From: an uncultured Phycisphaeraceae bacterium
Lineage (GTDB): Bacteria; Planctomycetota; Phycisphaerae; UBA1845
Length of the DNA: 64,000 nt
Direction of reading: 5' to 3'
Assembly (NCBI GenBank): GCA_964494205.1
Contig: CAZBRD010000004.1
Span: 164,170-228,169, forward strand
How positions within the stretch are numbered: the first letter of the stretch is position 1; the number at the start of each line of letters is the position of its first letter. Both the position numbers and the translations under genes were made by a program. The notes beneath the pieces are model-generated. The model had not been told where the DNA came from. It made no database searches and was given only the letters and a program-made list of their open reading frames with translations. Shown here piece by piece: positions 12,777-61,258 of the stretch.

Positions 12777-12864
12777 ATTGACATCACACCATACCCAACT
12801 CTAATCTACCTGCGCCTGTTGCAAGCGCTACCGCGCGAGCTGCAGGCCGACAATTGAATACATA

Positions 12865-13053
12865 GCGACTGTGGGTGTTCATCAACTCGATGAACCCAAG
12901 GGAAGGTGGTGCGAATCCACCGCGGACCCGCCGCTGTAATCGGGTACGAACGCTGCAATTAGCCATTCGTGAAAAAGGTTAAAACCAACCTCAACGCGGA
13001 GAAGGCGCAGTTAGTAGGACGATCCGTGAGCCAGAAGACCTGCCCGCCGTCGC
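12865..13053 (+). promoter_or_regulatory. Cobalamin (B12) riboswitch
   Basis: Conserved blocks read directly: AAGGGAAGGTGGTGCGAATCCACCGCGGACCCGCCGCTGTAA, GCCATTC, GAGAAGGCGC, and the B12 box GAGCCAGAAGACCTGCC. A P1-like pairing gcgac..ggg (12865-) with ccc..gtcgc (-13053) closes the element. It compares well with the E. coli btuB leader blocks (GGGAAUCCAGUGCGAAUCUGG..GCGGUAAGG, GCCAUUC, AGCCCGAAGACCUGCC). Confidence 0.9.
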
Positions 13054-13144
13054 CAATGTTGATGGGACGCTCTCGGTGTTTGGAGCGTCGCGATCAGCGG
13101 CGACACAAGTTCGCGCTTTCTCTGATCTGTTGGATCGGTTCGCT

Positions 13145-13168
13145 GTGCCGAGAATCCCTTCTCGGCAC
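13145..13168. repeat. GTGCCGAGAA-N4-TTCTCGGCAC palindromic repeat copy
   Basis: gtgccgagaatcccttctcggcac, with no T tract after it. Located in the riboswitch-to-gene spacer. Confidence 0.7.
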
Positions 13169-13304: not shown

Positions 13305-14447
13305 ATGTCGGTCTTTTCACACCGCTCAAATGTGCTTTCCGGAAAAAAGAAGCAAACAGTTTTCTCAGCGTTATTGATAGTCCCCCTTTTCGCCGCGGCT
13401 GTTACTACTGCCCGGGCCGATCTCTTCAACGAATATGACTATTTCGGCGCTTTTGGCGTCCCGCCCGACACCTACGCATTTGACGTCCTGCCCGATGGCC
13501 GACTCGTCACGGTTTCCGGCGACCACGTTTTCGTTGAATCCAACCTGCTTTCCCGCGACTTTGTCGACCTGGGCCAACTCCCCGCCGGCGACATCGGTTC
13601 CTTCGGCGTCGCGTTTCTTCGAGTGTCACCTGATGGCACAAGAATCGCCATCGGCAACAACGGCGGCGCGACGTTTTCAAACTATCAGGTCGGTGTCTTC
13701 ACGTTCCCGACACTGACGGGAACTTGGTTCGACGTCAACCACTTCGACGCGGAGTGGTACAATAACACTTTCCTGGCGCTGACCACCAGCAGCAGCGACG
13801 TGACAATGCTTGACACCGCAAGCCCGAACCCGGCCAGCCCCATCAATCCCGTCATCGTCTCCAACGTCAGCGGCGCCTCAGCCGGTATCACTTTCGATGC
13901 GAGTGGAAACCTTTACACCGGCGACGGCTTCTCCCCTACCGACACGGGCGTGATCAAAGCATTCTCACCTTTGCAATGGTTGCCCGCTCTCACCGGCGGA
14001 CAGGCTGCGGACTTTCAAACCGGCGGCACCACCATTGTTGACATACTCTCCGCCGCATCGCTGGGCTTCGATGCCGAAGGCAATCTTCACGTCGCAGGCG
14101 GGGATTTCGTTGGCGGCGCCGACGTGGATTTCGTCGCCCTGGCCAATGGCAACAACGTTCAATCAGCCCTGAACGGCGGCGGTCCCATCGATGTGCTGAA
14201 CGCGTCGCAACTTCGCCGCCTCGATCCGGAACCGGCGAACCCGTTCAATTTCTACAACACGAATCACAACCTGATCACCGGAGAGCTGTACGTCCAGGAC
14301 TTCGGCTCACCTGTAGTGCACGTGTACAGCGCGGGCTCACCGGTGCCGACAGCCTCCACGTGGGGCCTCGTCATTATGGCTGGCTTGCTACTGGTTGCCG
14401 CCAGAATCACGTTCCCGCGTTTTCACGCGCGAACGCAGTCCGCGTGA
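13305..14447 (+). CDS. Secreted repeat (possibly beta-propeller-like) protein with an IPTL-type C-terminal sorting signal
   Basis: Signal peptide ...PLFAAAVTTARA. Recurring motifs DGRLVTVSGD, SPDGTRIAIGNNGG, DASGNLYTGDG, DAEGNLHVAGGD, TGELYVQD. C-terminus VPTASTWGLVIMAGLLLVAARITFPRFHAR. Strong SD upstream. Confidence 0.8.
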   Translation: MSVFSHRSNVLSGKKKQTVFSALLIVPLFAAAVTTARADLFNEYDYFGAFGVPPDTYAFDVLPDGRLVTVSGDHVFVESNLLSRDFVDLGQLPAGDIGSFGVAFLRVSPDGTRIAIGNNGGATFSNYQVGVFTFPTLTGTWFDVNHFDAEWYNNTFLALTTSSSDVTMLDTASPNPASPINPVIVSNVSGASAGITFDASGNLYTGDGFSPTDTGVIKAFSPLQWLPALTGGQAADFQTGGTTIVDILSAASLGFDAEGNLHVAGGDFVGGADVDFVALANGNNVQSALNGGGPIDVLNASQLRRLDPEPANPFNFYNTNHNLITGELYVQDFGSPVVHVYSAGSPVPTASTWGLVIMAGLLLVAARITFPRFHARTQSA

Positions 14448-20850: not shown

Positions 20851-20999
20851 GCGCGGCGGGTGGAACCCGCCCTACCGCGGCGCTTCGAAAAGTTTCGTTC
20901 TCACGAAAGCACTTCAGATAACATTGTCGTAAATATCGACTCGCAATTTCTCGGCTCACGCCCCTCGAAGGCACCGCTCAATTCCGCTACCGTGCGGTC

Positions 21000-22760
21000 A
21001 TGCATGAACTTCCGCTCATTACAACCGTTGCGGCGGCGTTTACCGGGGCGTGGGTGCTGGGTTTGGCGACGCAGTGGCTGCGGCTATCGCCGATCGTCGG
21101 TTATTTGCTGGCCGGAGTCCTGATCGGGCCTTACACGCCCGGTTTCGTAGGTGATCTGCACATCGCTCACCAATTAGCCGAAGTCGGCGTGATTCTGCTG
21201 ATGTTCGGCGTCGGGTTGCATTTCCATCTCAAGGACCTGCTTTCGGTCAAGGGCGTCGCGATCCCGGGGGCGATTGGCCAGAGCGTGATCGCCACCGTCG
21301 TCGCCGTGCTGATTTTTTCCGCCTTCGGTATGCCGCCGAAAACGGGTGCCGTCCTCGGCATGGCCATGGCCGTCGCCAGCACGGTCGTGCTCATGCGCGT
21401 GCTGATGGACGCAGACGTGCTCAACGCGCCGCAAGGCCACGTAGCCGTCGGATGGCTGATCGTAGAAGACATCTTCACTGTGGTGTTGCTGGTGCTTATC
21501 CCTGTGCTCGGTACTACCCCAGAGGCCGCAGAGCATGCAACAACGCCGACGAACTCCAGTTTTCTATACGCGCTCGGAATAGCACTCCTGAAGCTCGGAG
21601 CATTGGTAGCCATAGTTTTGATCGCCGGTGCGCGGGTGGTTCCCTGGGTTCTGGTGCGAGTCGCGCGACTTCGTTCGCGGGAGCTTTTCACGCTGACCGT
21701 GCTTGTTTTCTCAATCGCGATTGCTGCAGGGTCTTATTTCTATTTTGGCGTGTCGATGGCGTTAGGGGCATTCCTCGCAGGCATGGTCGTCGCACAATCG
21801 CCCGTAAGTCACCAAGCCGCCGCCGATGCACTTCCCATGCGCGACGCATTTGCTGTTCTCTTCTTCGTGTCCGTCGGGATGATCTTTGATCCATCGATTC
21901 TGCTGCGGGAACCGCTCATGGTGGCTGCGGCGTTGGGAATCATTCTGATCGTGAAACCCCTGGCTGCATTGGCGATCGTTGCGGTCCTTGGATACTCCGC
22001 GAAAACGGCGCTGACAGTAGCACTCGGCCTTGCCCAAATCGGTGAGTTTTCGTTCATCCTCTCGGAACTGGCGCGTCGCCATGGTTTGATGGAGGACGCG
22101 GGCCACAGCGTTCTCGTCGCCTCCGCGATCATTTCGATCACGTTGAATCCCGTTTTGTTTCGCTCACTTCCGAGATTGGAAGCGTGGTTGAAGACACGAC
22201 CGATACTCTGGAAATTACTAAATGGCCGAGCCGAACGACGGGCTGCCGGATCGAAGTTGATTCAAACGATCGACGCAGAAGACTTCGACAACAGTAAAGC
22301 CGGACGCGCCATCGTCATTGGATACGGTCCCGTCGGCCGCTCCGTTCATCGATTGTTGCAAGAGGCCAATCTGCACACAGTCGTCATCGATATGAACCTG
22401 GACACAGTGTCGGAGCTGAAACGCGAAGGCCAAGCCGCAATCTTCGGCGATGCCTCGCACGAAAGCATCTTGGAACAAGCGGGAGTCAAAGGTGCTGCAC
22501 ATCTGGTCGTCACACTTCCCAACGCAGCCGATCGAAGTGCGATCGTGGCTGCGGTTCGAAACCTGAACCCAACGGTCCGCATACTCGCGCGGGCACGATA
22601 TCTGCGAGAAAGGGAAGAGCTCGAAAAGTCGGGTGTTTCAGCCGCCGTGTTTGAAGAAGCTGAAGCAGCCGTCGCGCTCGCGAGACTAGTGCTTGCGGAT
22701 ATGGTGATGCCGGCGGGTGGAACCCGCCCTATAGATTCTGCGGGTTATTACACCGGTTGA
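21000..22760 (+). CDS. CPA2 cation:proton antiporter with a C-terminal RCK/TrkA-N domain (KefB/KefC/YbaL-like)
   Basis: About 12 TM segments with a typical Na_H_Exchanger pattern (LGYLLAGVLIGP...LLMFGVGLHF). NAD-binding fold IVIGYGPVGRSV. The last ~17 codons run through a GGCGGGTGGAACCCGCC repeat copy. Confidence 0.85.
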   Translation: MHELPLITTVAAAFTGAWVLGLATQWLRLSPIVGYLLAGVLIGPYTPGFVGDLHIAHQLAEVGVILLMFGVGLHFHLKDLLSVKGVAIPGAIGQSVIATVVAVLIFSAFGMPPKTGAVLGMAMAVASTVVLMRVLMDADVLNAPQGHVAVGWLIVEDIFTVVLLVLIPVLGTTPEAAEHATTPTNSSFLYALGIALLKLGALVAIVLIAGARVVPWVLVRVARLRSRELFTLTVLVFSIAIAAGSYFYFGVSMALGAFLAGMVVAQSPVSHQAAADALPMRDAFAVLFFVSVGMIFDPSILLREPLMVAAALGIILIVKPLAALAIVAVLGYSAKTALTVALGLAQIGEFSFILSELARRHGLMEDAGHSVLVASAIISITLNPVLFRSLPRLEAWLKTRPILWKLLNGRAERRAAGSKLIQTIDAEDFDNSKAGRAIVIGYGPVGRSVHRLLQEANLHTVVIDMNLDTVSELKREGQAAIFGDASHESILEQAGVKGAAHLVVTLPNAADRSAIVAAVRNLNPTVRILARARYLREREELEKSGVSAAVFEEAEAAVALARLVLADMVMPAGGTRPIDSAGYYTG

Positions 22761-35504: not shown

Positions 35505-36230
35505 TTATCTGCTTCGCAATAGGGCCAATCGATTATCTTCCCAGCATCGCTTGAGCGAGTGTTCGGTGGGCAACTCCAGCGTAACAGTCGGGATGCCCCG
35601 TTCGATGCCCGCCCATGTCCCAAAACTCCCCGGCGTGGGATAACCGATCGAGCTGGTCACGGGGTACTTGTTATGCCGACTCATGCGCTGTGCATGGCGT
35701 TTGGCAGGACCATCAAAGTTATTGCAGAAGCGACCACCGCTGATCGAATGAATGGTGATGATCAACGACGGCGCGAAGCGCTCAATCACATCGATCACGC
35801 ACCTGGTTTCCGGCTCACTCGCGGCCTTTGGTCCGCCGAACATGCGACTTCGAGGGTTGCCAAGTTCCCAGTTGCTCGCCGGAAAGTTGCGATTGATGTC
35901 CACTTTTCTTGCGTTACGACGTGAGCGGATCTCGTAACCGTCGGGATTCACGATCGGAACGATGATCCAATTGCGGCCTTGGCGCGCCGCGTAATCACCA
36001 GCGAGGGCCACACCAAGTTTCTGTGCGATCGCAACAGATTTTGGCTCATCGCCGTGAAATCCACCAAAGATCAGAATTGAATCGCGCTGACCACTTATAT
36101 ACGTGTAAGCATGAATGGGTTGACGGCGCACAGACTTACCGCACGTGATGCGTTCGGGAACTTGTGGCACGGTGGCGACTGTCGTCCTAGTGGTCTGTTT
36201 CACTCGAAAATTCGGGTGAAAGTGTGCCAC
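35505..36230 (-). CDS. M14-family zinc carboxypeptidase-like protein (MpaA / murein peptide amidase-like)
   Basis: GGFHGDEP, VNPDGY and DINRNFP, followed by SEPET and TIHS motifs. Confidence 0.75.
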   Translation of the reverse strand: MAHFHPNFRVKQTTRTTVATVPQVPERITCGKSVRRQPIHAYTYISGQRDSILIFGGFHGDEPKSVAIAQKLGVALAGDYAARQGRNWIIVPIVNPDGYEIRSRRNARKVDINRNFPASNWELGNPRSRMFGGPKAASEPETRCVIDVIERFAPSLIITIHSISGGRFCNNFDGPAKRHAQRMSRHNKYPVTSSIGYPTPGSFGTWAGIERGIPTVTLELPTEHSLKRCWEDNRLALLRSR

Positions 36231-36290
36231 TGCTCTGTGAGCAGTGCGTTCACTCGTTGTGTGACCCGCTGATTCAAATACCTTGGGGAA

Positions 36291-37463
36291 CTAGTTCGAA
36301 CCGGCCGCAACCATCGGCGCCGGTTTCATCAAACGAGTCACCCGATGACCTTTGGCGCGAGTCTTAACCGGCTCGACCGCAGCCGCGCGAGGAATCATGT
36401 CGGCTGAACTCTCAAAGAACGAACCCAGGTTGCGAATCTTTTCCTGCCGCTTTCGTAAGAGAACATCGACCGGCAGATTACGAAGTCGATCAAGAGTTCC
36501 CACGATGTAGCGCTCGAGGCTGGCCGCCGCACTTTCCGGATCGCGATGTGCCCCGCCCAATGGCTCCGGCACCACGTCGTCAATCAATCCCAATTTCAAA
36601 AGCTCGCGCGATGTAATCCGAAGCGCCTCAGCCGCATGCTTGCGCCGCTCATTCGTCTTCCAAAGAATGGCAGCACAGCCCTCCGGCGAGATGACCGAAT
36701 AGAACGCGTTTTGCAGCATGGCGATTCGATCGCCTACGCCGATGCCCAACGCCCCACCGCTGCCGCCCTCTCCGATGATCGCACAGATGATCGGCGTACG
36801 CAGTCGGGACATTTCCATAAGGTTGACCGCGATCGAATACGCGATGCCTCTCGCCTCGGCCCCGATGCCCGGATAGGCACCCTGCGTGTCAATTAGACTG
36901 ACCACCGGCAGGTGGTACTTCTCGGCCAGCTTCATCATCCGCAGGGCTTTGCGATAGCCTTCCGGATGGGCACAGCCGAAGTTGCATGAGATTCGCTCCT
37001 TGACGTCCTTACCCTTGTTGTGGCCGATAAACGCCACCTTGTGCCCCCCGATCCGGGCGAAACCAGTGACAATCGCCCGGTCATCGCTGTAGATACGGTC
37101 GCCGTGGAGCTCACAGAAATCGCGGAACGCGAGCTGGAGGTAATCCGTCGATAGCGGCCGTTTGGGGTGGCGGGCGACCTGCACGGTCTCCCACGGGGTC
37201 AGGGAGGAATAAAGCCTCTTGAGAGTCGCCTTGAAGCGATCCCGCTGCTGTCTGATGTCGGCTGATAGGTCTCGACCCGATGCCTGGTGCTCTCGCTCCA
37301 TCTCATCGATGTCGAATTGGATTCGCTGTAATGGCTTCTCGAATTCGAGAAGCCCGTTCACACTCGCTGCGGACCCATTGGCCGACGAGCTCGTCGGTTC
37401 ATTGCTCATAGTTTTATAAGCCCTTTGCGGGCTCCTTTTCATTAGGCCGGATTCCCGCGCCAT
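36291..37463 (-). CDS. accA: Acetyl-CoA carboxylase carboxyltransferase subunit alpha
   Basis: LEFEKPL...LTPWETVQVARHPKRP...ELHGDR...GHNKGKD...NFGCAHPEGYRKALRMMKLAEKY.LPV..LIDTQGAYPGIGAEARG. The start is uncertain (alternative Met at 37409). Confidence 0.93.
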   Translation of the reverse strand: MARESGLMKRSPQRAYKTMSNEPTSSSANGSAASVNGLLEFEKPLQRIQFDIDEMEREHQASGRDLSADIRQQRDRFKATLKRLYSSLTPWETVQVARHPKRPLSTDYLQLAFRDFCELHGDRIYSDDRAIVTGFARIGGHKVAFIGHNKGKDVKERISCNFGCAHPEGYRKALRMMKLAEKYHLPVVSLIDTQGAYPGIGAEARGIAYSIAVNLMEMSRLRTPIICAIIGEGGSGGALGIGVGDRIAMLQNAFYSVISPEGCAAILWKTNERRKHAAEALRITSRELLKLGLIDDVVPEPLGGAHRDPESAAASLERYIVGTLDRLRNLPVDVLLRKRQEKIRNLGSFFESSADMIPRAAAVEPVKTRAKGHRVTRLMKPAPMVAAGSN

Positions 37464-38538: not shown

Positions 38539-41385
38539 CTATGAATTCGCTGCTGGCAAAATCGCGCGACGAAACGCAACCTTGGCCGACGTCAGCAGCA
38601 GCAACCCCAAGATGACGATGCCCCATTCGCTGATGGTCGGAATTGCGCCGGCTGAATCGCAATCATCAGGAGTACCGTTGCCGTTGGCGTCGACTAGGTC
38701 GTCGCCACCCGGGCAAACGTCGTAGCAATTCGCAACTGTATCGCCATCAGTGTCGACATCCGACACACCGCAACCACAGACGCCCGGCTGGATCTTGTTC
38801 GCATCGTTCGGGCAGCCGTCGTTGCAATTCGGCGTGCCGTCGAAGTCATTGTCAGTGTCGGCGACTCCGCAACCGCAAGCCCCAATAGTCAACTTAGCTG
38901 GATCATTCGGGCATCCGTCGCAGACGTCCGGAAGTGCATCACCATCGGCGTTCGGCTCGCAGTCGTCAGGTACCCGATTGAAGTTGCAGTCGTTCGGCGC
39001 GGGGCCGAGGATCTCGCGAACCAACACGTCGTCGATCGCAATGCTGTCGCCGTTCTCGCCAAAATAACGGAATGCGACTCGGAAGCTGCCGCCGGACAGC
39101 AGCGGCGTCAGGTCCCACGTACCCTCGTTCCAGTCGTACGGATCAACTGCCGTTGACCAGACTTCGCGAAGGCTGCCGACAAAAATATCGTCCCCGCCGC
39201 CTAGAGCACCGATCACCAGCAGAATCTCCACGTCAATCGCGTCGCAGAATGCCCCGGAACAACCGTCTGTCCAAAGCGTGAGTGACGCGACACTCGTATT
39301 GATAACCGGCGAAATCAGGTAATCGTCGCAGTTTCCGAAGTTAGCCCAGTGCACAGCCGAAGGCGCCGCGTTTTGTCCGTCAAAAATGTCCGCAGACCAC
39401 CCAGCGAAATCGCAGGAACCGACCGTCACGTGCTCCCACCCGGCAGGAGGAAAGTTGTCCGAACTGATGGTGTCAAAGGTCTCGTCGAGGAATACGTTGG
39501 CGACAATGTCGCCGAGCTGACACTCGTCCGGAACGGTGTCCGGCTGGCAGTCGTTGCTTTCACCACCGGCGATTTCGCATTCGTCAGGAACGCCGTTGCC
39601 CTGGCAGTCCGAACTGACCGCTCCATTGCCGTCCGGATCGCCCGGATTCAGATCGCATTCGTCGGGAAAATCGTTTTCGTTGCAGTCCGGAAACTCGCAG
39701 TGGTCCGGCGTGCCGTTCGCGTTGCAGTCGGTCGCCACGACCCCGTCACCGTCCGGATCTGTAGGATTTAGGTCGCAGTCATCCGGAACGCCGTCAAAGT
39801 CGCAGTCTATTTCTGGCCAGCATTCATCCGGAAGGCCATTGCCGTTGCAGTCCGCGCTAACTGACCCGTTGCCGTCCGGGTCTGCCGGGTTGACGTCGCA
39901 GTCATCCGGAACATTATTGAAGTTGCAGTCTGCCTCGCACTCATCTGGAGTGCTGTTGTTGTTGCAGTCGGTGCTGACCTCGCCGTTGCCGTCTGGATCG
40001 GCGGCATCGATGTCGCAGCCGTCGGGGACGTTATTCAAGTTGCAGTCCGGCTCTTCAAAGTCATCGGCAATTCCGTTGTTGTTGCAGTCGGCATCACACG
40101 CCGGGAAGAACGCGGGCGTCGTCGGAGGACCGGTCCAAACCTGCTTGAAATTGCTCCAGTCTGCGCAATCGACGTCACCATCGCCATCGCAATCCGCTCG
40201 GTCACACGTCAAAGGGTTGAACGCGGAGTAGCAAGCGTGCCACGCCGTTTCATCGTTGGCATCGTTGTCGCTATCGCCATCGAAATCACCACAAGGATGC
40301 AACGAAACAACCCAGGCTATGGTGTTGAAGGACGGGTCTACCCCTTGCCCGACAATCGTCTGACCGTCTGGCGTAATTCCTAGCGCCGTGACGAGTTGAT
40401 ATCCGCTAAGGCCCGACAATCCAGCGTCTAGAAGCACTTGCTTCAGCGACCGCATGCCTTCTGTCTCGGTCCAAATGAATGCTTCCAGCGAGCCAAACGG
40501 ACCAAACGTCCCGCTCACACCGACCACGATGCCGTTGTCCGACACGGCGTTTCCCAAGCTTCGTTCATCCCATGGGTTGATGGTGCCAAGATACGTCACC
40601 ATGTCGCCCGTCGTCTGATACCGGAAAGCCCGCTCCGAGAATTCAAGTGGCGGAATAGCTGCGCCCACAATCACCGAACCATCCGTCGTCGATGCCGTAG
40701 CCTCACCACAGGTCTCCGCGCCCAGGAACAACTCAGGGACATTCGGCGCTTGCCACTTCACCGGACGCCGGCACCCATTGATGGGGTGCTCATAAAATCC
40801 GAAGATGGCCGAACCGTCGCGCGCAATCGCTGAGGCGCGGCTGCTGAAGCCGCCACCCGGACCACCCAACGAAACAACCCCGCCTCCAGCAGTCCACTCA
40901 AAGCCGGACGCAATGCATCCGTCCCACGACAGTCCGACAACCTTCGAGCAGTCTCCGGAAATGTCCCAAGCCGTCGCAAGCGAGGTGTCACAACCAGTCG
41001 CGCCCGCTACGCCACCGAGATAGGTGATCGTACCGGTTCCGGTGTCTACCAGGATCGGCTCCGCCAACCCCGAGCCGGGATTGATGGCCGCGGACACGAC
41101 CGTCGACGCATCATCACAGACACCTGCTGTAAAGGTATTGAACCAATCCGGTGAAGTAAGAAGCTGCGTTCCCGTGGCTGCTGACCAAATCCACAACGAG
41201 CCATTAGATGTGCCAACGACATGCTGGCCATCGGGAGTGACGTCAAAGGCCGCCACGGCAGCCACGTCTAGATCGGGAATCACAGTGAACGACTCCGCCA
41301 TAGTAACCATTGGCAGAACGAACATTAGCCCTGTCACAATTGAAACGTTTACCCAAGCTCGCATTTCTTCTGGCCCCTGAACCAC
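38539..41385 (-). CDS. Giant secreted surface protein: HAF-type repeats, dockerin-like module, CNxNGxPDxC repeats, thrombospondin-type-3-like Asp/Cys repeats, IPTL-type C-terminal sorting signal
   Basis: Signal MRAWVNVSIVTGLMFVLPMVTMA (alternative start 41364). HAF-like units (DGSVIVGAAI..AFRY, DNGIVVGVSG...AFIWTETEGM). About 4 repeats of DCNxNGxPDECE..DPDGNG. DTDNDFDGTPNCNDGCPND-type repeats. C-terminus AIPTISEWGIVILGLLLLTSAKVAFRR. Confidence 0.85.
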   Translation of the reverse strand: MVQGPEEMRAWVNVSIVTGLMFVLPMVTMAESFTVIPDLDVAAVAAFDVTPDGQHVVGTSNGSLWIWSAATGTQLLTSPDWFNTFTAGVCDDASTVVSAAINPGSGLAEPILVDTGTGTITYLGGVAGATGCDTSLATAWDISGDCSKVVGLSWDGCIASGFEWTAGGGVVSLGGPGGGFSSRASAIARDGSAIFGFYEHPINGCRRPVKWQAPNVPELFLGAETCGEATASTTDGSVIVGAAIPPLEFSERAFRYQTTGDMVTYLGTINPWDERSLGNAVSDNGIVVGVSGTFGPFGSLEAFIWTETEGMRSLKQVLLDAGLSGLSGYQLVTALGITPDGQTIVGQGVDPSFNTIAWVVSLHPCGDFDGDSDNDANDETAWHACYSAFNPLTCDRADCDGDGDVDCADWSNFKQVWTGPPTTPAFFPACDADCNNNGIADDFEEPDCNLNNVPDGCDIDAADPDGNGEVSTDCNNNSTPDECEADCNFNNVPDDCDVNPADPDGNGSVSADCNGNGLPDECWPEIDCDFDGVPDDCDLNPTDPDGDGVVATDCNANGTPDHCEFPDCNENDFPDECDLNPGDPDGNGAVSSDCQGNGVPDECEIAGGESNDCQPDTVPDECQLGDIVANVFLDETFDTISSDNFPPAGWEHVTVGSCDFAGWSADIFDGQNAAPSAVHWANFGNCDDYLISPVINTSVASLTLWTDGCSGAFCDAIDVEILLVIGALGGGDDIFVGSLREVWSTAVDPYDWNEGTWDLTPLLSGGSFRVAFRYFGENGDSIAIDDVLVREILGPAPNDCNFNRVPDDCEPNADGDALPDVCDGCPNDPAKLTIGACGCGVADTDNDFDGTPNCNDGCPNDANKIQPGVCGCGVSDVDTDGDTVANCYDVCPGGDDLVDANGNGTPDDCDSAGAIPTISEWGIVILGLLLLTSAKVAFRRAILPAANS

Positions 41386-45816: not shown

Positions 45817-48522
45817 TTACGCGCCCATGTAAACATCGCGGCGCGTGCCGAAGTAAATCTTACCGGCGGCAAGGAGCAGCAACGCCATGATGACGATGCC
45901 CCACTCACTGACGGTTGGGATGGTACCGGCCGAATCGCAATCATCCGGAGTACCGTTACCGTTGTTGTCGACGAGGTCGTCGCCACCCGGGCAAACATCG
46001 TTGCAATCCGCAACGGTATCACCATCGGTGTCGACATCCGACACGCCGCAACCACAGGTACCCGGCAGTTGCTTGTTCGGATCGGTCGGGCAACCGTCGT
46101 TACAATTCGGGAAGCCGTCCAGATCGGTGTCTGTGTCAGGCGTACCGCAACCGCAGATACCCGGAGCAAGCTTATTCGGATCGGTGTCGCAGGTTTCGTT
46201 GCAATCCGGCTGTGAGTCGCCGTCAGTGTTGGTGTCGGCTACGCCGCAACCGCAAAGACCCGGCTCAAGCTTATTCGGATCGTTATCGCAGTTGTCGATG
46301 CAATCCGGCTGTGAGTCGCCGTCAGTGTTGGTGTCGGCTACACCGCAACCACACAGACCCGGCTCAAGCTTATTCGGATCGTTATCGCAGTTGTCGATGC
46401 AATCCGGCTGCGAGTCGCCGTCGGTGTTGGTGTCAGCCACATTGCAACCGCAAAGACCCGGTGCCAACTTTGCAGGATCATCCGGGCAACCGTCGCAGGC
46501 ATCGCCCGCGCTGTCGCCGTCAGCATTTTCCTGGCCTGGATTCGCTGCATTCGGGCAGTTGTCGCATTCATCACCGAGACCGTCGCCGTCAGCGTCGATC
46601 TGAGCCGGATTGAACACATTTGGACAGTTGTCGCCACAAGCGGCGTCAATACCGTCCGGGAACGGAAGGTCAGCATCGCCGCCGCACGCAGCACCTGACG
46701 GAACGCCGCCCGAAGCCGCACAGCATGCTTCAGCCACCTCGGCGCAAGTGCCGGCGAAGCAGCACGCAACGAGGTTGCCGCAAGTGCTTCCAATACCAGC
46801 AAACAGACCAGTGCAGGCCGCTTCATTTACAGGTTCGGTGCAAACCAGATTGATGTCACAGCAGGCGCCAATGGCGTTTTCCGAGCATGGGCACTCGATG
46901 TTGACTTCATACTGGCCACGATCCGTCGCACTCCACGAACCGACCGAGAAGAAATAGGTCTCGCCAACAGTGAGACCCGACATGCAACCGGTGTTGGACA
47001 AGAAGTCCGTACCTGAAATGTCGTCACTGCAGCCGACGCTGACGGGGTCGCCGCATGCGTCAAACACAATGATCTGTGAATCGACTGGACCGCCTACCAC
47101 TGAATCAGTAAAGATTCGTGCGTTGTCATACGTTGCGACGAAGCTGTACCAGCGGTGACCGAAGCCGGCGCTGAACAAGCAGCCCTCGGGATCCGTCGCT
47201 GCGTTCACTACACCGGTGTTATCCGAAATGAAAACGGAGTCGCACTGAACGGGAACTGAACAGTCGCAGGACTCGTTACCAGCGAGATTGTTCTCGCAGT
47301 TGTTCAAGCAAGCATCGCAATTGTTCGAGTTTCCATCATCGCACTCTTCGGGGCCTTCCTGAATACCGTTACCGCATACGAACGAAACACAGGTAATGTC
47401 GAGAGTGTAGGCGGCTGTTGCACCACCCCAACCCGAAACGCGAATCTTATAATCAACGCCGCTGGCTGTAAGGAACGAAACTTCTGAATTGAAGTTGGCA
47501 GGGAAGTTAATGTCGTCATCACAGGCGACTTCCAATCCCGCGCAACCGTCAAAAACTGCAAGAACCGTATCCTCGCCATCTGCACTGCCGTCGGTTGAAA
47601 TGGTCAAACCACCATCGCAGGTCGAGGTATAGCAATACCAATCAGCGTCGTCATTCGGATCGCCGCAGCTTGGATATGGTGCTTCATTCGGACCAGTCGA
47701 CGGACCACCCGCGGCCAAACCCGAAGCAACGCCAACACCGTCTGCAACACTGTCGCAGAACGCGCAAACCGAACCGTCGCCTGCGCCAGTCACGGCCCAA
47801 AGCGACGTATAACCAGCAGCAACGGTCGGGATAAACGGACCCCACGGTGGCGGAACGCCGCCGCCCGGCGGGCTGTAATAAACGCCGTCATCACTCGAAC
47901 CGACAGCTTCGGCTCCACCATTCTTGGCGGCCCACGTCGAAATAACCGCGGGCGGTCCAACGACTTCGAGGTGCGAGCTGGTCATGACCATCCAAATCTT
48001 GCCTGGAAGTATGATGCCAGGAGCTATTTTCTGCTCATGGAACCCGCAGCCAATGAAACCGGACGCGCCGAGGTCACCATTCGTCGATCCAGCCTGAGAA
48101 CCAGCCGTGCCGATGATTGGGGCAAGCGGGGCGCTCGGTGGACCAGCAGCATCATCAGTCCACAATTCGGTGCTCACGGTATACGGTGCACAGTTACCGC
48201 ACGTAGCAAAAAGATAGGTGCGCAATTCATAACCCGCACCAATCAAAGTTGCTTCGTCCGCGAGATAGATTCGACCGTTAGCGCGATTCAAACGGAGACC
48301 GCCCGAGTTGAACGCACCGGCGTCGAAAAGTGTTGTCCCTGGCAACGTAGCCACGCTGCCGCCTGGCAACATTTGCGTCGGCATGGTTTCCGGCTGCTCA
48401 GTCAAAATGACTGGCGTTGTCGGAACTTGAGCTGGCGAAGCCACTTCAACCGGCTTCACCTGTGCAAATGCGGTACACGTACAAAGTGCAACCGCGAGAA
48501 TACTCTTGAAAATCCTATTCAT
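45817..48522 (-). CDS. Giant secreted surface protein: PPC-like domains, Cys-rich CGNG..EECDDGN repeat, thrombospondin-type-3-like repeats, IPTL-type C-terminal sorting signal
   Basis: The ATG at 48522 is preceded by ggagga. Signal MNRIFKSILAVALCTCTAFA. CGNGIQEGPEECDDGNSNNCDAC. DNCPNVFNPAQIDADGDGLGDECDNCPN. Three near-identical 33-aa units DTNTDGDSQPDCIDNCDNDPNKLEPGLCGCGVA. C-terminus TIPTVSEWGIVIMALLLLAAGKIYFGTRR. Confidence 0.88.
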   Translation of the reverse strand: MNRIFKSILAVALCTCTAFAQVKPVEVASPAQVPTTPVILTEQPETMPTQMLPGGSVATLPGTTLFDAGAFNSGGLRLNRANGRIYLADEATLIGAGYELRTYLFATCGNCAPYTVSTELWTDDAAGPPSAPLAPIIGTAGSQAGSTNGDLGASGFIGCGFHEQKIAPGIILPGKIWMVMTSSHLEVVGPPAVISTWAAKNGGAEAVGSSDDGVYYSPPGGGVPPPWGPFIPTVAAGYTSLWAVTGAGDGSVCAFCDSVADGVGVASGLAAGGPSTGPNEAPYPSCGDPNDDADWYCYTSTCDGGLTISTDGSADGEDTVLAVFDGCAGLEVACDDDINFPANFNSEVSFLTASGVDYKIRVSGWGGATAAYTLDITCVSFVCGNGIQEGPEECDDGNSNNCDACLNNCENNLAGNESCDCSVPVQCDSVFISDNTGVVNAATDPEGCLFSAGFGHRWYSFVATYDNARIFTDSVVGGPVDSQIIVFDACGDPVSVGCSDDISGTDFLSNTGCMSGLTVGETYFFSVGSWSATDRGQYEVNIECPCSENAIGACCDINLVCTEPVNEAACTGLFAGIGSTCGNLVACCFAGTCAEVAEACCAASGGVPSGAACGGDADLPFPDGIDAACGDNCPNVFNPAQIDADGDGLGDECDNCPNAANPGQENADGDSAGDACDGCPDDPAKLAPGLCGCNVADTNTDGDSQPDCIDNCDNDPNKLEPGLCGCGVADTNTDGDSQPDCIDNCDNDPNKLEPGLCGCGVADTNTDGDSQPDCNETCDTDPNKLAPGICGCGTPDTDTDLDGFPNCNDGCPTDPNKQLPGTCGCGVSDVDTDGDTVADCNDVCPGGDDLVDNNGNGTPDDCDSAGTIPTVSEWGIVIMALLLLAAGKIYFGTRRDVYMGA
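46160..46470 (-). repeat. Near-perfect 99-bp in-frame tandem repeats (about 3 units)
   Basis: The unit gcaatccggctgtgagtcgccgtcagtgttggtgtcggcta.gccgcaacc.ca.agacccggctcaagcttattcggatcgttatcgcagttgtcgat occurs at 46201-46299 and 46300-46398, with a third diverging copy after it. Confidence 0.85.
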
Positions 48523-50147: not shown

Positions 50148-50320
50148 TTGGGCTGAAAGCGAGTGACTAGTTTCACCCGAGAATACAGGTCGCCGAGTGC
50201 CTATGCGTGTGCAACTGCTCTGTGAGCAGTGCGTTACCTCATCGGGTGACATACAAGTTCAATTGAATGGAGGCACTAACTCGGAAGGCAAAAACTCGTG
50301 TCCAAAGCGGTACTAACCAA

Positions 50321-54136: not shown

Positions 54137-56254
54137 TTATTCGGACGCAACTGATGAAGCAGACCGAAGTTGCTTGCGACGACCGGTAAGGTAGACCCAA
54201 AGCACCGTGATGTCCGCCGGACTGATGCCGCTGATTCGCCGAGCTTGGCCAAGCGTCCGAGGAGCCACTCGGGCAAATTTCTCGCGAGCTTCGCGACGCA
54301 GTTCGGACATGATCGAATAATCAACCCAATCAGGGATCGCCATCGATTCCAGTTTCCGGAACCGCTCGACCTGCTTCGACTGGCGATCCACATATCCGCT
54401 GTACTTCGCGTCGAGCATCAAGAGTCGCAAATCGTCAGCCGTGAAAACGATGTCAGTGTAGCCACGAAGCGAAGTTTCGATTTCAGCAGGATCAACGTCA
54501 GGCCGGCGCAGCCAGTTAGCCATCGGAACCCCGTTATGCCGGGCTTTGGCTGAAGCGTCCTTCAACGATTCGAGCCGATTCCTTTTCGACTCAAACCGCG
54601 ACCAGCGATCGTCAGTCACAGTCCCGATTCGCCGCCCCAGTGGGGTCAGCCGCTGATCCGCATTGTCCGACCGGAGCAACAGGCGGTACTCCGCCCGCGA
54701 GGTAAACATCCGATACGGCTCGGTCGGCGGATGCGTAATCAAATCGTCGATCATCACCCCGATGTACGACTCGTCGCGACCCAGCACCACCGGCTCTTCG
54801 TTCTGCAACCGACGAACCGCGTTGATACCCGCGATGATCCCCTGCCCCGCAGCCTCTTCATACCCGCTCGTGCCGTTGATCTGTCCCGCGAGAAACAGAC
54901 CGCCTACCAGCTTCGTTTCAAGCGAGCCGGTCGTCTGATGAGTCGGCACGAAGTCGTATTCGACCGCGTAGCCATGCTGAATGATCCGCGCATTTTCCAA
55001 CCCCGGAATCTGCCGAATGAATGAATCCTGCACTTCCGCCGGAATCGACGTGCTGATGCCGTTGCAATAGACGCGCTCGTTATCGTACCCCTCGGGTTCT
55101 AGAAAAACCTGATGCCGCGTCTTGTCGGCAAAACGCACAACCTTGTCCTCGATGCTCGGACAATAGCGTGGCCCGGTCGATTGAATCTGGCCCGAATACA
55201 TCGGCGCACGATGCAGATTCGCGCGGATCAGATCATGCACATCCTGATTCGTCCACGTCACCCAGCAATCGATCTGCCTCTGCGAAATCCGATCGTTCAT
55301 GAACGAGAACGGGACCGGCTCCGCGTCGCCCGGCTGAACCTCGCACACCGAAAAATCAATCGAATCGCGATGCACACGCGGCGGCGTGCCGGTCTTCAAA
55401 CGACCCAGCCCGAACCCCATTTCCACGAGCGACTTACTGAGCCCGACAGCGCTGGCTTCGCCGATTCGGCCACCTTCCGCCTGACACGTTCCGCAATGCA
55501 TAATCGCGCGAAGGAACGTGCCCGTCGTGATAATCACCGCACCGGCCTGAAAACGCCGACCATCGGTAAGCGTCAAACCCGTAACGCGCTTCCGCACCCC
55601 CGCCACATTACGCGCGCCGTTCTGAAACGTGCTGTCGATCTTGCCATCAGAACCGCGACCGCAAGGGAGCGGCCTTGTTTCCGCACGAGCACCATCCTCG
55701 ACGGCGTACTCAATCTGCTGTGCCGAGAATCCCTTCCCGGCACCATCAGAACCGCGACCGCTAGGGAGCGGCCTTGCTTCCGCAGTGGCACCATGTTGCT
55801 GTGTCGAGAATCCTTTCTCGGCACTCTCGGCGTATTCAATCCTCTCAACCGCCCCCTCAATAACCTCAAGATTGCGACTCTGCGAAATGAGTTCCTGCAC
55901 GGCCTTTGGATAAAGATCGCGATCAGCCTGCGCCCGCGGTGCCCACACAGCCGGTCCCTTACTGCGATTCAACATGCGAAACTGAATGCCCGCGATGTCC
56001 GTCGCGAGACCCATCACGCCGCCGAGCGCATCCACCTCGCGTACCATCTGACCCTTGCCGATGCCGCCAATAGCCGGGTTGCAAGACATCCGACCAATAG
56101 CCGCGTGCTGCATGGTCACGAGCGCAGTAGAAGCCCCCATCCGCGCCGCCGCCCACGCAGCCTCCACGCCCGCATGCCCGCCGCCAATCACGATGACATC
56201 GTAAGACTTCAACAAACGGCTCCGAACGAATTCATGCTCCACATTGGAATTCAT
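54137..56254 (-). CDS. mnmG: tRNA uridine 5-carboxymethylaminomethyl modification enzyme MnmG (GidA) carrying a ~75-aa repeat-derived insertion
   Basis: YDVIVIGGGHAGVEAAWAAARMG, SCNPAIGG.GKG, GRLKTGTPPR, GPRYCPSIEDK, LEPEG, GQINGTSGYEEAA and QLTPADI-like ISPADI motifs. Its 705 aa compare with ~630 aa for typical MnmG. Confidence 0.95.
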   Translation of the reverse strand: MNSNVEHEFVRSRLLKSYDVIVIGGGHAGVEAAWAAARMGASTALVTMQHAAIGRMSCNPAIGGIGKGQMVREVDALGGVMGLATDIAGIQFRMLNRSKGPAVWAPRAQADRDLYPKAVQELISQSRNLEVIEGAVERIEYAESAEKGFSTQQHGATAEARPLPSGRGSDGAGKGFSAQQIEYAVEDGARAETRPLPCGRGSDGKIDSTFQNGARNVAGVRKRVTGLTLTDGRRFQAGAVIITTGTFLRAIMHCGTCQAEGGRIGEASAVGLSKSLVEMGFGLGRLKTGTPPRVHRDSIDFSVCEVQPGDAEPVPFSFMNDRISQRQIDCWVTWTNQDVHDLIRANLHRAPMYSGQIQSTGPRYCPSIEDKVVRFADKTRHQVFLEPEGYDNERVYCNGISTSIPAEVQDSFIRQIPGLENARIIQHGYAVEYDFVPTHQTTGSLETKLVGGLFLAGQINGTSGYEEAAGQGIIAGINAVRRLQNEEPVVLGRDESYIGVMIDDLITHPPTEPYRMFTSRAEYRLLLRSDNADQRLTPLGRRIGTVTDDRWSRFESKRNRLESLKDASAKARHNGVPMANWLRRPDVDPAEIETSLRGYTDIVFTADDLRLLMLDAKYSGYVDRQSKQVERFRKLESMAIPDWVDYSIMSELRREAREKFARVAPRTLGQARRISGISPADITVLWVYLTGRRKQLRSASSVASE
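55644..55824 (+). repeat. Two tandem copies of the ~100-bp composite repeat element, inserted in frame in mnmG (antisense to the gene)
   Basis: Copy 1 (55644-55743): ccatcagaaccgcgaccgcaagggagcggcc...gtgccgagaatcccttcccggcac. Copy 2 (55744-55824): catcagaaccgcgaccgctagggagcggcc...gtgtcgagaatcctttctcggcac. Same ends as the intergenic copy at 11329-11430. They translate as AEKGFSTQQHGATAEARPLPSGRGSDG / AGKGFSAQQIEYAVEDGARAETRPLPCGRGSDG. Confidence 0.8.
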
Positions 56255-56347
56255 TTGAGCAGAACGTGCCAGTAGCGGTCAAGGAGGTGCTGTAGTTGAT
56301 GCACGAAACGAGCAAGAGTTGGATGGATGCTCCGCACCCACCTTTTC

Positions 56348-58039
56348 TCAAGGCCCCGGCACTGCAAACGCTCGTTGCACAAACGCGAAGTCGGCCAGGT
56401 CGGCGTCGCCATCGGGTTCGATGTCGAAAAGACCGCAGCATGGGGTGGCGAATTCCACATCCGGCGCGGTGCGGCATTGAGTGTAGGCGAAGTAGTCATC
56501 TAGCGCGGTCAATCGATCGCCATTGAAGTCGCCGCGATACTCGCATTCGTCGGGCACGTCGTTTTCGTTGCAATCGAGACTCACGCCGTCAGCGATATCA
56601 TTTTCGTCGGGGATTTCATTCCCATTGCAGTCATACGGGCCGATGCGCAGGTAATACACGTCGTGTTCGCCGTTAAATGTCGCAGCGTATGCGACGTTCG
56701 CTCCAAGATTGTCCGACCACATGTGATAGTAGTCGCCAAGCTTGGGGTTTGTGACTGGTCCGCCGAGCCAACTATCGAACATGGGACTGACCTGAATGTT
56801 GGGTGACCATGTGAGGCCGGCGTCGATCGAATACGAGTAATACAACTCGCACAGGTTTATCTGTTCAGAATGCCGCGTGTCATTCCACACAACATCGATG
56901 CGGCCGTTCGGCGCTACCGACATCATGGTAAACCACTGGTAGTGGCGAGGGTGATCGGGATCATCGTTGACGCGAAAAGGTGCACTCCAAGTTACGCCCC
57001 GGTCCGTGCTCCGGACGAAATAGACATTAGAGGGATCAAGTTGAGGTAAGTCCCTAAGGCATAATGAGAACAATGAGTACACAGTAGGTGAATCATCAGC
57101 GGGATCGTAGGCAATCCATGCTTGCCAATTAAGCCCGCCACCAGTATTTCCTCCTGAGCCGTCATCATAAACGCTCGGGTCGTAAATGGTCGATACGAAG
57201 TCGATTGTCGGAACGACAGATGCATCCCAAGCGTTTGAAGACCGTGCAACCCTGCCGTTATCGCCGACAAAATAAACGGTTCCGTTGGCCCCTACAGTTA
57301 TTGTGCCAGCTAGGCTAACGGTTGGATGAGAAGCGACGGGGGGTGATGTTGTGATTCCGCCATCAGTTGAGCGGCGAAAGGCGCCATAGACCAGGAAATA
57401 GAGAAATCCGTCGCTGACCCCACCTGTTCGATCTACTGTGAACCACGGTTTGTCCCCATACCACGAAACGGTATGGGTCGGCCAAGATATCCCGCCATCT
57501 TGGGAATGGAAAAGATAGAAATTTAGACCGTCGTGTAGGCGTACGCTCAGGTAATAGAAGCGCCCTGAACTGTCAAAGCCAAGAACAGGATCACTCGCCC
57601 CTTGGTTAGGGCCTAGGACTCCCGGAAAAGTCCAAGTCCTTCCGGCGTCATGACTATAGCCCCAGCCCGCCTGTCGGAAATCGGATTGAACGGTGTCAAA
57701 CTGCCGCCACCCGATGGCCATGCGCCTCGGATTCGTCGGATCAATTGCGATCGACGGTTCATTAGCCGCATCACCCGGAATGTTGCAGCCGAACTCATCG
57801 ACGTTGACTTGCACGCTCTTGTACGGCCCCAGCACCACCGGCTCACACCGCACCTGCACACCCGGCGGAATCTCCCCCGATCGCGGCATCCACGGATCGC
57901 TCGGCGCTTCTTCGTGCGCAACCTCGCCCCCAAGCTCAACCGGCCCCGACCACGCGCGGTTTCCGTCCAAGAAACCCACCACAATCAATGCAAGAACCAA
58001 CCACACCCCTGCCGATCGGTTTGAACGGACCCAGCGCAT
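56348..58039 (-). CDS. Secreted BNR/Asp-box repeat protein (sialidase-fold family) with a C-terminal dockerin-like module
   Basis: Asp-boxes SHDAGRTW, SQDGGISW, STDGGIT, STDRGVTW, SIDAGLTW. Signal MRWVRSNRSAGVWLVLALIVVGF from the internal Met; the track ORF 5' extension runs through a repeat. C-terminus: DCNENDVPDECE..GDFNGD...DIEPDGDADLADFAFVQ. Confidence 0.8.
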   Translation of the reverse strand: MRWVRSNRSAGVWLVLALIVVGFLDGNRAWSGPVELGGEVAHEEAPSDPWMPRSGEIPPGVQVRCEPVVLGPYKSVQVNVDEFGCNIPGDAANEPSIAIDPTNPRRMAIGWRQFDTVQSDFRQAGWGYSHDAGRTWTFPGVLGPNQGASDPVLGFDSSGRFYYLSVRLHDGLNFYLFHSQDGGISWPTHTVSWYGDKPWFTVDRTGGVSDGFLYFLVYGAFRRSTDGGITTSPPVASHPTVSLAGTITVGANGTVYFVGDNGRVARSSNAWDASVVPTIDFVSTIYDPSVYDDGSGGNTGGGLNWQAWIAYDPADDSPTVYSLFSLCLRDLPQLDPSNVYFVRSTDRGVTWSAPFRVNDDPDHPRHYQWFTMMSVAPNGRIDVVWNDTRHSEQINLCELYYSYSIDAGLTWSPNIQVSPMFDSWLGGPVTNPKLGDYYHMWSDNLGANVAYAATFNGEHDVYYLRIGPYDCNGNEIPDENDIADGVSLDCNENDVPDECEYRGDFNGDRLTALDDYFAYTQCRTAPDVEFATPCCGLFDIEPDGDADLADFAFVQRAFAVPGP

Positions 58040-58121
58040 ACAGCACCTCCGCCCATTCACCAGCAAGATCGAGACCACAAAGCCCCGCCACAGACCATCC
58101 AAACAATCTTTCTCCCCACCT

Positions 58122-58149
58122 ATGCGCCTTGGCGTCTTTGCGCGAGACC
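58122..58149. repeat. TGCGCCTTGGCGTCTTTGCGCGAGACC repeat copy
   Basis: atgcgccttggcgtctttgcgcgagacc. A near-identical copy at 2261-2289 reads tttgcgccttggcgtctattcgcgagacc. Related ...gccttcgtg... variants occur at 11441-11470 and 18021-18050. Confidence 0.7.
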
Positions 58150-58689
58150 ACGAGTTCAAGATGTAGGGTGCTCTGCAATCACCTGCTTATTTGTCCGCAA
58201 TCCTCACCGATCACCTGTGTTGTTATTGGGTGGCAATGAGTTTCACTTTGCAACATCAAAACCACCATCTCCATCGTTGCGATACGCGCCCCACACCGCC
58301 TCGGAAAATCCCTTTTGCGCGAAAAAAGAATTCTTCTACGAAATTCTTGATTTCCAGCGTCCCAGCCAACGAATTCGCTTGCGCCGCGCAAAACCGCGAA
58401 CAAAAAACCCGATTTTCGGCGTCAAAATCAAGCATACGAAAACGCACGAAGATCCGCGCAGAAAAAAGGTGGGTTCGGAGAACCCACCCTACAACTGCGC
58501 CTTACATGAATTCATTTGCACCAGTGATGTGACACGACCCGTATTTCGGTTTGGGTGGCATGGCCAAGCGCAGCGCCGCCATGTAAGCACGAATCAGACG
58601 GGTGGCACGGTCAAGCCGCAGCTTGGCCGTGGAGAGCTACAATGAACGCTTCCTCTGCAACGGCCCACCATACTGGCTGTTTCAATCGA

Positions 58690-61030: not shown

Positions 61031-61194
61031 TTAGCAAACTCCGCGATTCGACTAATTGTAGCCTTGCATTTCTTCGACAACAAACGGCCCCGAACGCAGC
61101 CGATACTACGTTTGCTAGGGTGCAATCGGACGAATAGACTCCGCGCTGGATGTTCGAGTAGCGGACATGGCGGCACGGAAGTCGCGTAGGGCGG

Positions 61195-61258
61195 GTTACA
61201 CCCGCCGCTGGGACTGAACGCGTAATGGCGGGTGAAACCCGCCCTATGTTGTGTTTGA
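61195..61258. repeat. Two inverted copies of the GGCGGGT-NNA-ACCCGCC REP hairpin
   Basis: tagggcgggttacacccgccgc and atggcgggtgaaacccgccctat. Other copies at 20853-20880 (gcggcgggtggaacccgccctaccgc) and 22710-22732. Confidence 0.75.

Follow-up and report, generated by a model that had tools for sequence, protein, structure and literature searches.

The mnmG gene of an uncultured Phycisphaeraceae bacterium was found to contain a 60-codon block that is very probably a cluster of hairpins of two dispersed families, similar to repetitive extragenic palindromes (REPs), which landed in a permissive surface loop of the encoded protein and is now translated. The gene lies within a 64,000-nt stretch of GenBank assembly GCA_964494205.1 (contig CAZBRD010000004.1, positions 164,170 to 228,169), hereafter called the window. 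Through this block, the essential tRNA-modification gene is connected with the class 3 HuH-Y1 'REPtron-like' system, which has been described but so far not studied. The gene and its internal elements were delimited as follows:

54137-56254, minus strand: mnmG (gidA) coding sequence, 705 amino acids (aa), intact (open reading frame (ORF) list, Pfam, PDB matches, AlphaFold)
55589-55837, minus strand: hypervariable MnmG loop, residues 140-222, 83 aa (alignment, loop census, per-residue model confidence)
55645-55674, plus strand: module A, CATCAGAACCGCGACCGCAAGGGAGCGGCC, a class 3 HuH-Y1-type REP-like hairpin, antisense to mnmG
55702-55714, plus strand: 13-nt direct repeat CGGCGTACTCAAT, with a partner, CGGCGTATTCAAT, at 55828-55840 (12/13 match)
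55717-55743, plus strand: hairpin A, GCTGTGCCGAGAATCCCTTCCCGGCAC, whose foot is GCTG and whose stem spans 10 bp (one mismatch), read as AGKGFSA
55744-55773, plus strand: module B, CATCAGAACCGCGACCGCTAGGGAGCGGCC, read as RPLPSGRGSDG
55798-55824, plus strand: hairpin B, GCTGTGTCGAGAATCCTTTCTCGGCAC, read as AEKGFST
55600-55624, minus strand: possible third, degenerate module, CAGAACGGCGCGCGTAATGTGGCGG, in the opposite orientation (19/25 positions), read as QNGARNVA

The block consisted of two tandem repeat units (55644-55743 and 55744-55824), arranged head-to-tail on the plus strand, and the frame remained open through both, giving two similar peptides, SAEKGFSTQQHGATAEARPLPSGRGSDG and AGKGFSAQQIEYAVEDGARAETRPLPCGRGSDG; to this extent the original prediction was confirmed. 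Each unit began with a 30-nt module, CATCAGAACCGCGACCGCnAGGGAGCGGCC, and ended with a 27-nt hairpin, GCTGTGCCGAGAATCCnTTCTCGGCAC, which in both units read GCTGTGyCGAGAATCCyTTCyCGGCAC. The units were spaced 99 nt from start to start and were 90% identical over their first 52 nt (repeat family D8). Their centres were also similar (TTGyTTCCGCA..GCACCAT), although unit A was longer by 18 nt. Module A comprised a CAGA foot and the hairpin CCGC-GA-CC-GCAA-GG-GA-GCGG, read as RPLPCGRGSDG, while the loop of module B was GCTA.

Repeats of both kinds were located elsewhere in the window:

11329-11430, plus strand: intergenic composite, directly after the stop codon of ORF 10707-11327
13142-13168, plus strand: solo hairpin GCTGTGCCGAGAATCCCTTCTCGGCAC, between a cobalamin riboswitch and ORF 13305-14447
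294-355 (294-316 and 330-355), plus strand: two variant hairpins with a different stem, GCTCGTGCGAAAATCCCTTCTCG and GCTGGTGCGAGAATCCTTTCTCGCAC (repeat family D9)

It had been proposed that the mnmG block represented two copies of a single palindromic element of about 100 bp, also present at 11329-11430. Both terminal modules were indeed shared with this intergenic copy, but its first 30 nt and last 27 nt were all that it had in common with the mnmG units; its central 45-48 nt were unrelated to their centres. The composite comprised a module (11329-11358) with a degenerate 3' half, an unrelated 45-nt centre and a hairpin (11404-11430), and its RNA fold had a z-score of -4.7. The block is therefore no single element but combines, as a mosaic, short repeats from two independent families. 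The 18-mer CATCAGAACCGCGACCGC occurred exactly three times in the window (11329, 55645 and 55744), where about 0.14 matches were expected by chance at up to 3 mismatches, while the hairpin GTGCCGAGAA-N4-TTCTCGGCAC occurred at 11407, 13145, 55720 and 55801, against a chance expectation of 0.00. The window contained 3 modules and 5 hairpins in total (chance expectations of 0.14, 0.00 and 0.02), and both hairpin orientations relative to transcription were present. The broader claim, that dispersed, mostly intergenic, hairpin-forming repeats make up a block in frame within a conserved gene, was upheld. The cobalamin riboswitch beside the solo hairpin (12856-13061, plus strand, Rfam RF00174, 105.5 bits) was situated upstream of ORF 13305-14447; positioned between the aptamer and the start codon, the solo hairpin could affect the expression platform.

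The two copies in mnmG look like the product of one local duplication and not of two separate insertions. Their centres resemble each other but not that of the intergenic copy, and the units would therefore derive from a duplication that followed a first insertion. The 13-nt direct repeats bracket hairpin A, module B and hairpin B, encode a duplicated IEYA peptide, and appear to be the trace of a duplication or insertion event. The candidate third module is situated within a 42-nt segment that a close relative (L001, see below) is without; matches as weak as this one are expected at about 0.8 per window by chance, its position beside module A alone being suggestive. It is perhaps the source of the approximately 14 extra residues encoded at 55602-55643, which L001 lacks. 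These residues, together with an N-terminal extension of about 13 aa that may simply reflect start-codon choice, mean that the length excess of MnmG was not confined to one block as first described, although 60 residues of it did come from the repeats.

The ORF at 54137-56254 was identified as MnmG by Pfam (GIDA, E = 4.8e-162, with GIDA_C_1st and SAM_GIDA_C also matched), and its closest PDB entry was E. coli MnmG (E about 1e-173). The HMMER alignment with the E. coli protein was in two parts (query 17-139 with chain 26-148, and query 211-693 with chain 142-643), leaving about 70 residues without an E. coli counterpart at approximately E. coli residue 148-152. An AlphaFold model built from 120 homologues had a mean predicted local distance difference test score (pLDDT) of 84.6 and a predicted template modelling score of 0.87, and matched solved MnmG structures with target-normalised TM-scores of 0.87-0.90. 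The sole long segment of low confidence (pLDDT < 50) spanned residues 152-217 and was flanked by strands at 136-144 and 221-229. The insert is predicted to be a disordered excursion at the tip of a beta-hairpin in the flavin adenine dinucleotide (FAD) domain, the remainder of the protein folding normally, which agrees with the surface loop that had been anticipated. The insertion site falls within the FAD-binding-domain segment 100-160 of E. coli MnmG and is absent from the MnmE-contact residues listed in a cryo-EM study (PMC12397908). A peptide search with the 63-aa insert produced no matches.

Neither module nor hairpin was matched in Rfam (the window at gathering thresholds, L001 and L046 at E ≤ 1), nor did a literature search by sequence string match either repeat. 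The module was identified through supplementary Table S1 of Quentin, Siguier, Chandler and Fichant (2018, BMC Genomics 19:475, PMC6006769), who described a small 'class 3' of HuH-Y1 proteins. The genes of this class occur mainly in Planctomycetes, Acidobacteria and Proteobacteria and are flanked by hairpins with a 5' CnGA foot, of which there are about 600 copies in Solibacter usitatus (PMC6006769). Table S1 includes CAGAGCCGCGACCGTTAGGGAGCG from S. usitatus and CCGAGCCGCGACCGTAAGGGAGCGGA from Legionella pneumophila, with the fold .....((((..((....))..))))., as well as a variant from Planctomyces limnophilus, ACGAGCCGGAAGCGTCAGCGACGGGC. In the window module, CAGAACCGCGACCGCAAGGGAGCGGC, the foot and the two stems separated by GA/GA are those seen in Table S1, and the four-base loop is GCAA; this module matched the S. 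usitatus entry at 21 of 24 positions. All three window copies begin with CAGA, following CAT, and the arrangement CCGC-GA-CC-NNNN-GG-GA-GCGG, folding as ((((..((....))..)))), is found both in the window (CCGCGACCGCAAGGGAGCGG) and in Table S1 (CCGCGACCGTAAGGGAGCGG).

A scan of bacterial genomes for CAGAACCGCGACCGCnnnnnAGCGG, in which all counts are lower bounds among the matches listed, identified the module in at least 103 genome stretches, mostly from Planctomycetota (Phycisphaerae, Planctomycetales and Gemmataceae) and Acidobacteriota (Bryobacterales, Acidobacteriaceae and Solibacteraceae). Three genomes, HKST-UBA84, JTS-RE133 and SMAG_U10050, each produced at least 10 module loci, showing dispersal. 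Single matches were also listed in metagenome-assembled genomes (MAGs) of an Akkermansiaceae species and a deltaproteobacterium and in a few other taxa; some of these lie inside genes and may be due to chance. The module was mostly solitary (about 27 nt), and was sometimes found in tandem arrays or in convergent pairs 46-185 nt apart, the latter in L046, L063, L078 and L106. The Bryobacteraceae MAG sequence L028 contained a 199-codon ORF (1527-2123, minus strand) matching Pfam Y1_Tnp (E = 1.7e-7) and bearing the sequences NHVH and YVVHEQ, which agree with the class 3 motifs NHVH and YV[VI]xEQ; an intact module was present just upstream and a degenerate module overlapped its 3' end, so that here the module flanked a class 3 gene. 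A fragment of a class 3-like gene also occurred beside a module in L104. The YxxNP motif of Y1 transposases had no match in the fetched sequences; class 3 genes were missed by this motif because their enzymes use YVVxEQ, and the revised motif found L028. From these comparisons, the 30-nt module was identified as a class 3 TnpA_Y1 (HuH-Y1) associated hairpin with a CnGA foot. The foot, the stem/GA-GA/stem arrangement with a GNRA-type loop, the phyla and the multi-copy dispersal are all shared with the published class 3 hairpins. However, these were described as high-copy and gene-flanking and were not reported inside protein-coding genes (PMC6006769), whereas the module in mnmG is inside a gene and is joined to a second, different hairpin.

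Tandem arrays of the module were observed in L082 (3226-3410), L087 (13-142) and L053 (4317-4476), with periods of 35-45 nt and identical short linkers, and one of these arrays was directly upstream of a gene start. With such periods and identical 'spacers', they were rejected as CRISPR-like arrays. An autonomous insertion sequence with modules as terminal inverted repeats was also rejected, there being no inverted module pairs at appropriate distances; the ORFs within the module pair of L042 did not encode a transposase. A miniature inverted-repeat transposable element was discounted because the unit ends are different hairpins and not inverted copies of each other. Around the module pairs in L046 and L063, no consistent target-site duplication was found.

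The 27-nt hairpin was traced by scanning metagenomes for GCCGAGAATCCnTTCTCGGC, the counts again being lower bounds among the matches listed. It was present in at least 120 metagenome stretches, typically as head-to-head dimers, and a module occurred within 110 nt at only 2 of 126 hairpin sites. Across the public collections scanned, the 5' module and the 3' hairpin proved to be separate families. With the primary matches masked, 84 of 135 further GAATCCnTTC cores had at least four flanking Watson-Crick pairs, compared to 1 of 135 in a register-shifted control. The stems around these cores differed (TGCGA, ACCGA, AACGA, GCGG, CGGG and GGGG), and given this covariation it is the shape of the hairpin, and not merely one sequence, that is conserved. 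By its sequence pattern, the 27-nt hairpin was recognised as a second widespread family with a GCTG foot, a GAATCCnTTC apex and varying complementary stems. Both families were shown to lie mainly outside genes and to be present in many genomes.

The subclass 2.6 tnpA_REP genes of Bacteroidetes (group 5 of the REP-associated tyrosine transposases, RAYTs) are flanked by 'atypical' REPs, GCTCCCGCGCGAATCCTTTCGCGTGG and GCTAGTGCGCGAATCCTTTCGCG (PMC6006769, Table S1). Like the window hairpin, these have a GCTn foot and an apex containing GAATCCTTTC, in which the stem closes with GAA, the loop is TCCT and TTC follows, as can be seen by comparing GCTCCCGCGCGAATCCTTTCGCGTGG with GCTGGTGCGAGAATCCTTTCTCGCAC. 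The stems differ in sequence and in length, the phylum is another one, and the likeness amounts to about 12 apex nucleotides plus the foot. Where module and hairpin did occur together, the module was upstream and in the same orientation in 5 of 6 independent cases, the exception being L099:

Module-then-hairpin, same orientation: window intergenic copy; window mnmG and L001; L169; L191; L219

The history of the insert was examined in relatives. The nearest, P0002 (L001), had 97% identity in the MnmG core and 90.7% nucleotide identity for the gene; L001 is an independent Logan assembly (SRR13076512), the contig having been detected in 3 samples. At the same codon it carries an insert of the same architecture, which has substitutions of its own and one extra hairpin module. 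The insert was 81% identical between the two genes, compared to about 91% in the flanks, and two indels set the copies apart, one of 21 nt and one of 42 nt, each a multiple of three. The common ancestor of the two genomes already had the block, which has since accumulated only substitutions and these two indels; the reading frame is therefore under selection. Mis-joins classically arise at short dispersed repeats, and the contig that contains the window is a 342,567-bp draft, so an assembler might conceivably have put a collapsed or chimeric repeat into mnmG. This is extremely improbable when an independent assembly contains the same architecture with in-frame indels of its own, and when both flanks are collinear mnmG with the frame open throughout; the mis-assembly that might have undone the original prediction can be dismissed. 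Inteins, introns and programmed bypassing were set aside also, because the block is too short, is without their signatures and kept its frame through indels in multiples of three.

Maintenance of the frame over about 9% nucleotide divergence might instead suggest that the insert is a lineage-specific protein feature, such as a disordered linker or interaction motif with a function of its own, retained because of the peptide, with its likeness to intergenic repeats being secondary. Yet the next relative, P0003 (L002), at 86% core identity, had a 28-aa loop without any module, which rules out a conserved lineage-specific domain, the other outcome that would have undone the original prediction. 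Furthermore, the insert has evolved more quickly than the remainder of mnmG and is predicted from the model to be disordered, and the same DNA modules are mostly intergenic in several phyla.

The loop itself was hypervariable. Among 120 planctomycete homologues it was 8-138 aa long (median 19), compared to 83 aa in the window; at least ten extra residues were present at this position in 58 of 120 proteins, while any other internal site had them in at most 4 of 120. Several of the long loops consisted of recognisable repeats:

L106 (P0011): forward and reverse modules 176 nt apart, a convergent pair, with 'cacgaagg' and 'atcaccaa' arrays
L230 (P0033): array and intact reverse module
L107 (P0020): P. 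limnophilus-type class 3 variant and a degenerate module
L231 (P0022): doublet of GTAG-tagged REPs (the loop is 9 aa long in relatives at 88-91% identity)
L109 (P0025): hairpin of another kind, CCCTCTCCCAAGGGGAGAGGG

The planctomycete MnmG loop holds at least three repeat families that are unrelated to one another, and the exact variant of the degenerate module in L107 had two further copies in nearby intergenic DNA. P0020 and P0033 were 98% identical in the core, but their loops were 67 and 37 aa long with different contents; this points to rapid turnover and repeated colonisation. In the corresponding DNA (L230, 1437-1650, and L107, 10340-10640), an intact module with a AGCCACGAAGCC array was opposed to a P. 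limnophilus-type variant with a ATTACCAAATCACC array, a difference that implies very recent replacement. A second and rarer insertion site was observed in the C-terminal helical domain (alignment columns 750-785, about residues 599-603 of the window MnmG), where P0020, P0034 and P0038 had 20-36 extra residues, for example HHVATSHDHITTVPHYH; these look like translated 'caccacatcacc'-type arrays.

These comparisons bear on whether the peptide was retained for its own sake. Similar PLPxGRGS[DE] peptides were indeed found at the same loop in P0011, P0020 and P0033, as retention would predict, but the loops of proteins 98% identical differed completely, and the similarity of the peptides follows from the same DNA being read in its sole hydrophilic, stop-free frame. 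Retention for the peptide is thus very unlikely to account for the insert. The antisense frames of the module comprise one with a stop (..TTC TGA), one that is hydrophobic (GRSLAVAVL) and one that is hydrophilic (PLPxGRGSD), of which only the hydrophilic frame was seen in MnmG.

A concentration of inserts at one site could also mean that the loop is a targeted landing site, in which resident hairpins or local single-stranded DNA recruit HuH insertions, or that the hairpins have been co-opted for translation or stability of the mnmG mRNA. Of some 630 aligned positions, this one site accounts for nearly all long indels, the three or more families there are unrelated, repeats cluster beside one another in intergenic DNA too, and the order and orientation of module and hairpin were consistent in all but one co-occurrence. 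However, no target motif was identified at the loop, hairpins were present in both orientations relative to transcription in the window, and the same modules were found in loops and linkers of many other proteins, as random insertion followed by tolerance would predict. This explanation was judged unlikely. Its boldest form, in which the planctomycete MnmG loop is an actively targeted landing pad for several HuH-mobilised hairpin families, turning over on the time scale of strain divergence, is doubtful; if true, it would provide a natural system in which to watch selfish single-stranded DNA elements write peptide into an essential enzyme, and a co-opted effect on mnmG mRNA or MnmG would be possible. 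The MnmG loop, at 8-138 aa across the phylum, is a compact marker of repeat activity and of tolerated surface disorder.

Modules or hairpins were also present in frame, between or within domains as confirmed by Pfam, in further proteins:

DNA polymerase III alpha subunit (DnaE), L089
Secretin, L161
MFS transporter, L004
E1/transketolase-like enzyme, L009
C25 peptidase, L005
Ser/Thr kinase, L169 (two modules and a hairpin)

The hairpin was read as AEKGFS both in the window MnmG and in the secretin. These copies fit insertion followed by selection for tolerated sites and frames. In the DnaE gene of a Phycisphaerae MAG (L089, 2088-4748, plus strand), inserts were located between the PHP and polymerase core domains and comprised an in-frame array of HEGTKA type, one module (QNRDREGAE) and another array. 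A comparable case is the REP that has reportedly been seen in dnaE of Rickettsia conorii.

The preferred explanation, a translated cluster of hairpins from two dispersed families, would have HuH-Y1 enzymes move the hairpins in trans while working on DNA in single-stranded form, a model drawn from the IS200/IS605 and REP/RAYT systems, followed by the local duplication described above. Only those insertions would survive that keep the frame, avoid the stop frame and encode a hydrophilic peptide rich in Gly, Ser and Pro, and such a filter would account for the recurrence of PLPxGRGS[DE] and AEKGFS among proteins unrelated to one another. Most likely the insert is baggage, either neutral or slightly deleterious, and not a functional domain. 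A number of observations weigh against this account. The module count for the source organism is 3 copies, from the 64-kb window alone, and the window contained neither a class 3 tnpA gene nor a Y1 transposase of any kind. A motif scan of 232 fetched sequences (1.5 Mb in short contigs) detected no HuH-Y1 or RAYT ORF beside the hairpin, a weak negative given the shortness of the contigs. No target-site signature was resolved at the mnmG block, and the 13-nt direct repeat could be a product of slippage instead of transposition. Each module differed from its L001 counterpart by 1 change in 30 nt, making the modules about as conserved as the coding flanks, which neither proves nor excludes selection on the hairpins. 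Finally, we infer translation of the insert from conservation of its frame.

In-frame REPs are known from many bacteria, including from tRNA-related enzymes (Di Nocera, De Gregorio and Rocco 2013, BMC Genomics 14:522, PMC3733652), and REPs are also inserted inside subclass 2.4 tnpA_REP genes (PMC6006769). As portrayed in the passages of PMC3733652 drawn upon here, intragenic REPs resemble the mnmG block in being palindromes within ORFs that leave the frame unbroken, as single units, dimers or clusters that encode at most about 80 aa, in enzymes of replication and repair and those related to tRNA, and at sites proposed to be flexible loops. They differ in bearing GTAG or CGTC tags; neither mnmG repeat has one, the foot of the module being CAGA and that of the hairpin GCTG, and since it has neither tag the hairpin does not belong to the REP super-families set out in those passages. 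The same passages do not name mnmG among the target genes, nor do they mention a single loop that several families have colonised again and again within a phylum. A parallel with Rickettsia palindromic elements (RPEs) had been drawn, and it is fair in functional terms: RPEs are selfish palindromes in frame within conserved genes, encoding a surface peptide while the host protein stays functional (according to the parts of PMC3733652 used), and the mnmG block is likewise an in-frame insertion in a conserved ORF with the host protein kept. Considering that in-frame REPs were already known (PMC6006769 and the passages of PMC3733652), the block is not the independent example it was said to be. RPEs are single units of 100-150 bp restricted to Rickettsia, while the mnmG block is constructed from two hairpin modules of about 27-30 nt in a planctomycete host, and so on architecture and host it does not belong to that family.

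In-frame REPs and RPEs are already established and current understanding is not overturned. Bacterial interspersed mosaic elements (BIMEs) of enterobacteria are extragenic mosaics of different short palindromic units, GTAG-type REPs, with variable linkers and often in tandem. The mosaic construction of the mnmG block is similar; however, BIMEs are extragenic and of GTAG type, while the mnmG mosaic is in a coding frame. What is new here is the presence of class 3-type hairpins in frame in proteins, their mosaics with a second hairpin family, and the recolonisation of the MnmG loop across Planctomycetota. Class 3 hairpins, previously noted only beside transposase genes, are now placed inside MnmG, DnaE, kinases, secretins and transporters, and the peptides PLPxGRGS[DE], QNRDRxGA, EPRPxGSG and AEKGFS in planctomycete and acidobacterial proteins are derived from repeats, and are not motifs or domains.

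Other repeats in the window were of separate kinds. A family of GTAG-tagged REPs (GTAGGGCGGGTTCCACCCGCCGC and variants) was present at 20853-20875, 22711-22731, 61186-61208 and 61226-61246, and a 51-nt inverted pair of this family (56299-56349 and 58461-58511) bracketed ORF 56348-58159, adjoining mnmG. A 77-nt repeat at 36222-36298 and 50207-50283 included a third type of hairpin, GTGCCACTGCTCTGTGAGCAGTGCG; a very similar hairpin occurred beside a GCTG-footed hairpin in metagenome contig L192, with looser likenesses in L150 and L229. At least six tandem 15-nt repeats (CCAGGACCCACCTGC-like) at 12095-12214, within ORF 11664-12701, encoded a proline-rich array of PAQDP type. Extensive coding repeats were found at 38594-40090 and 45872-46600, with periods of 99 nt and about 117-120 nt; these share a unit, TCGCAgTCaTCcGG...GTTGCAGTC, that also occurs at 56541-56589 in the gene adjoining mnmG, and they look like the repeated modules of large surface proteins.

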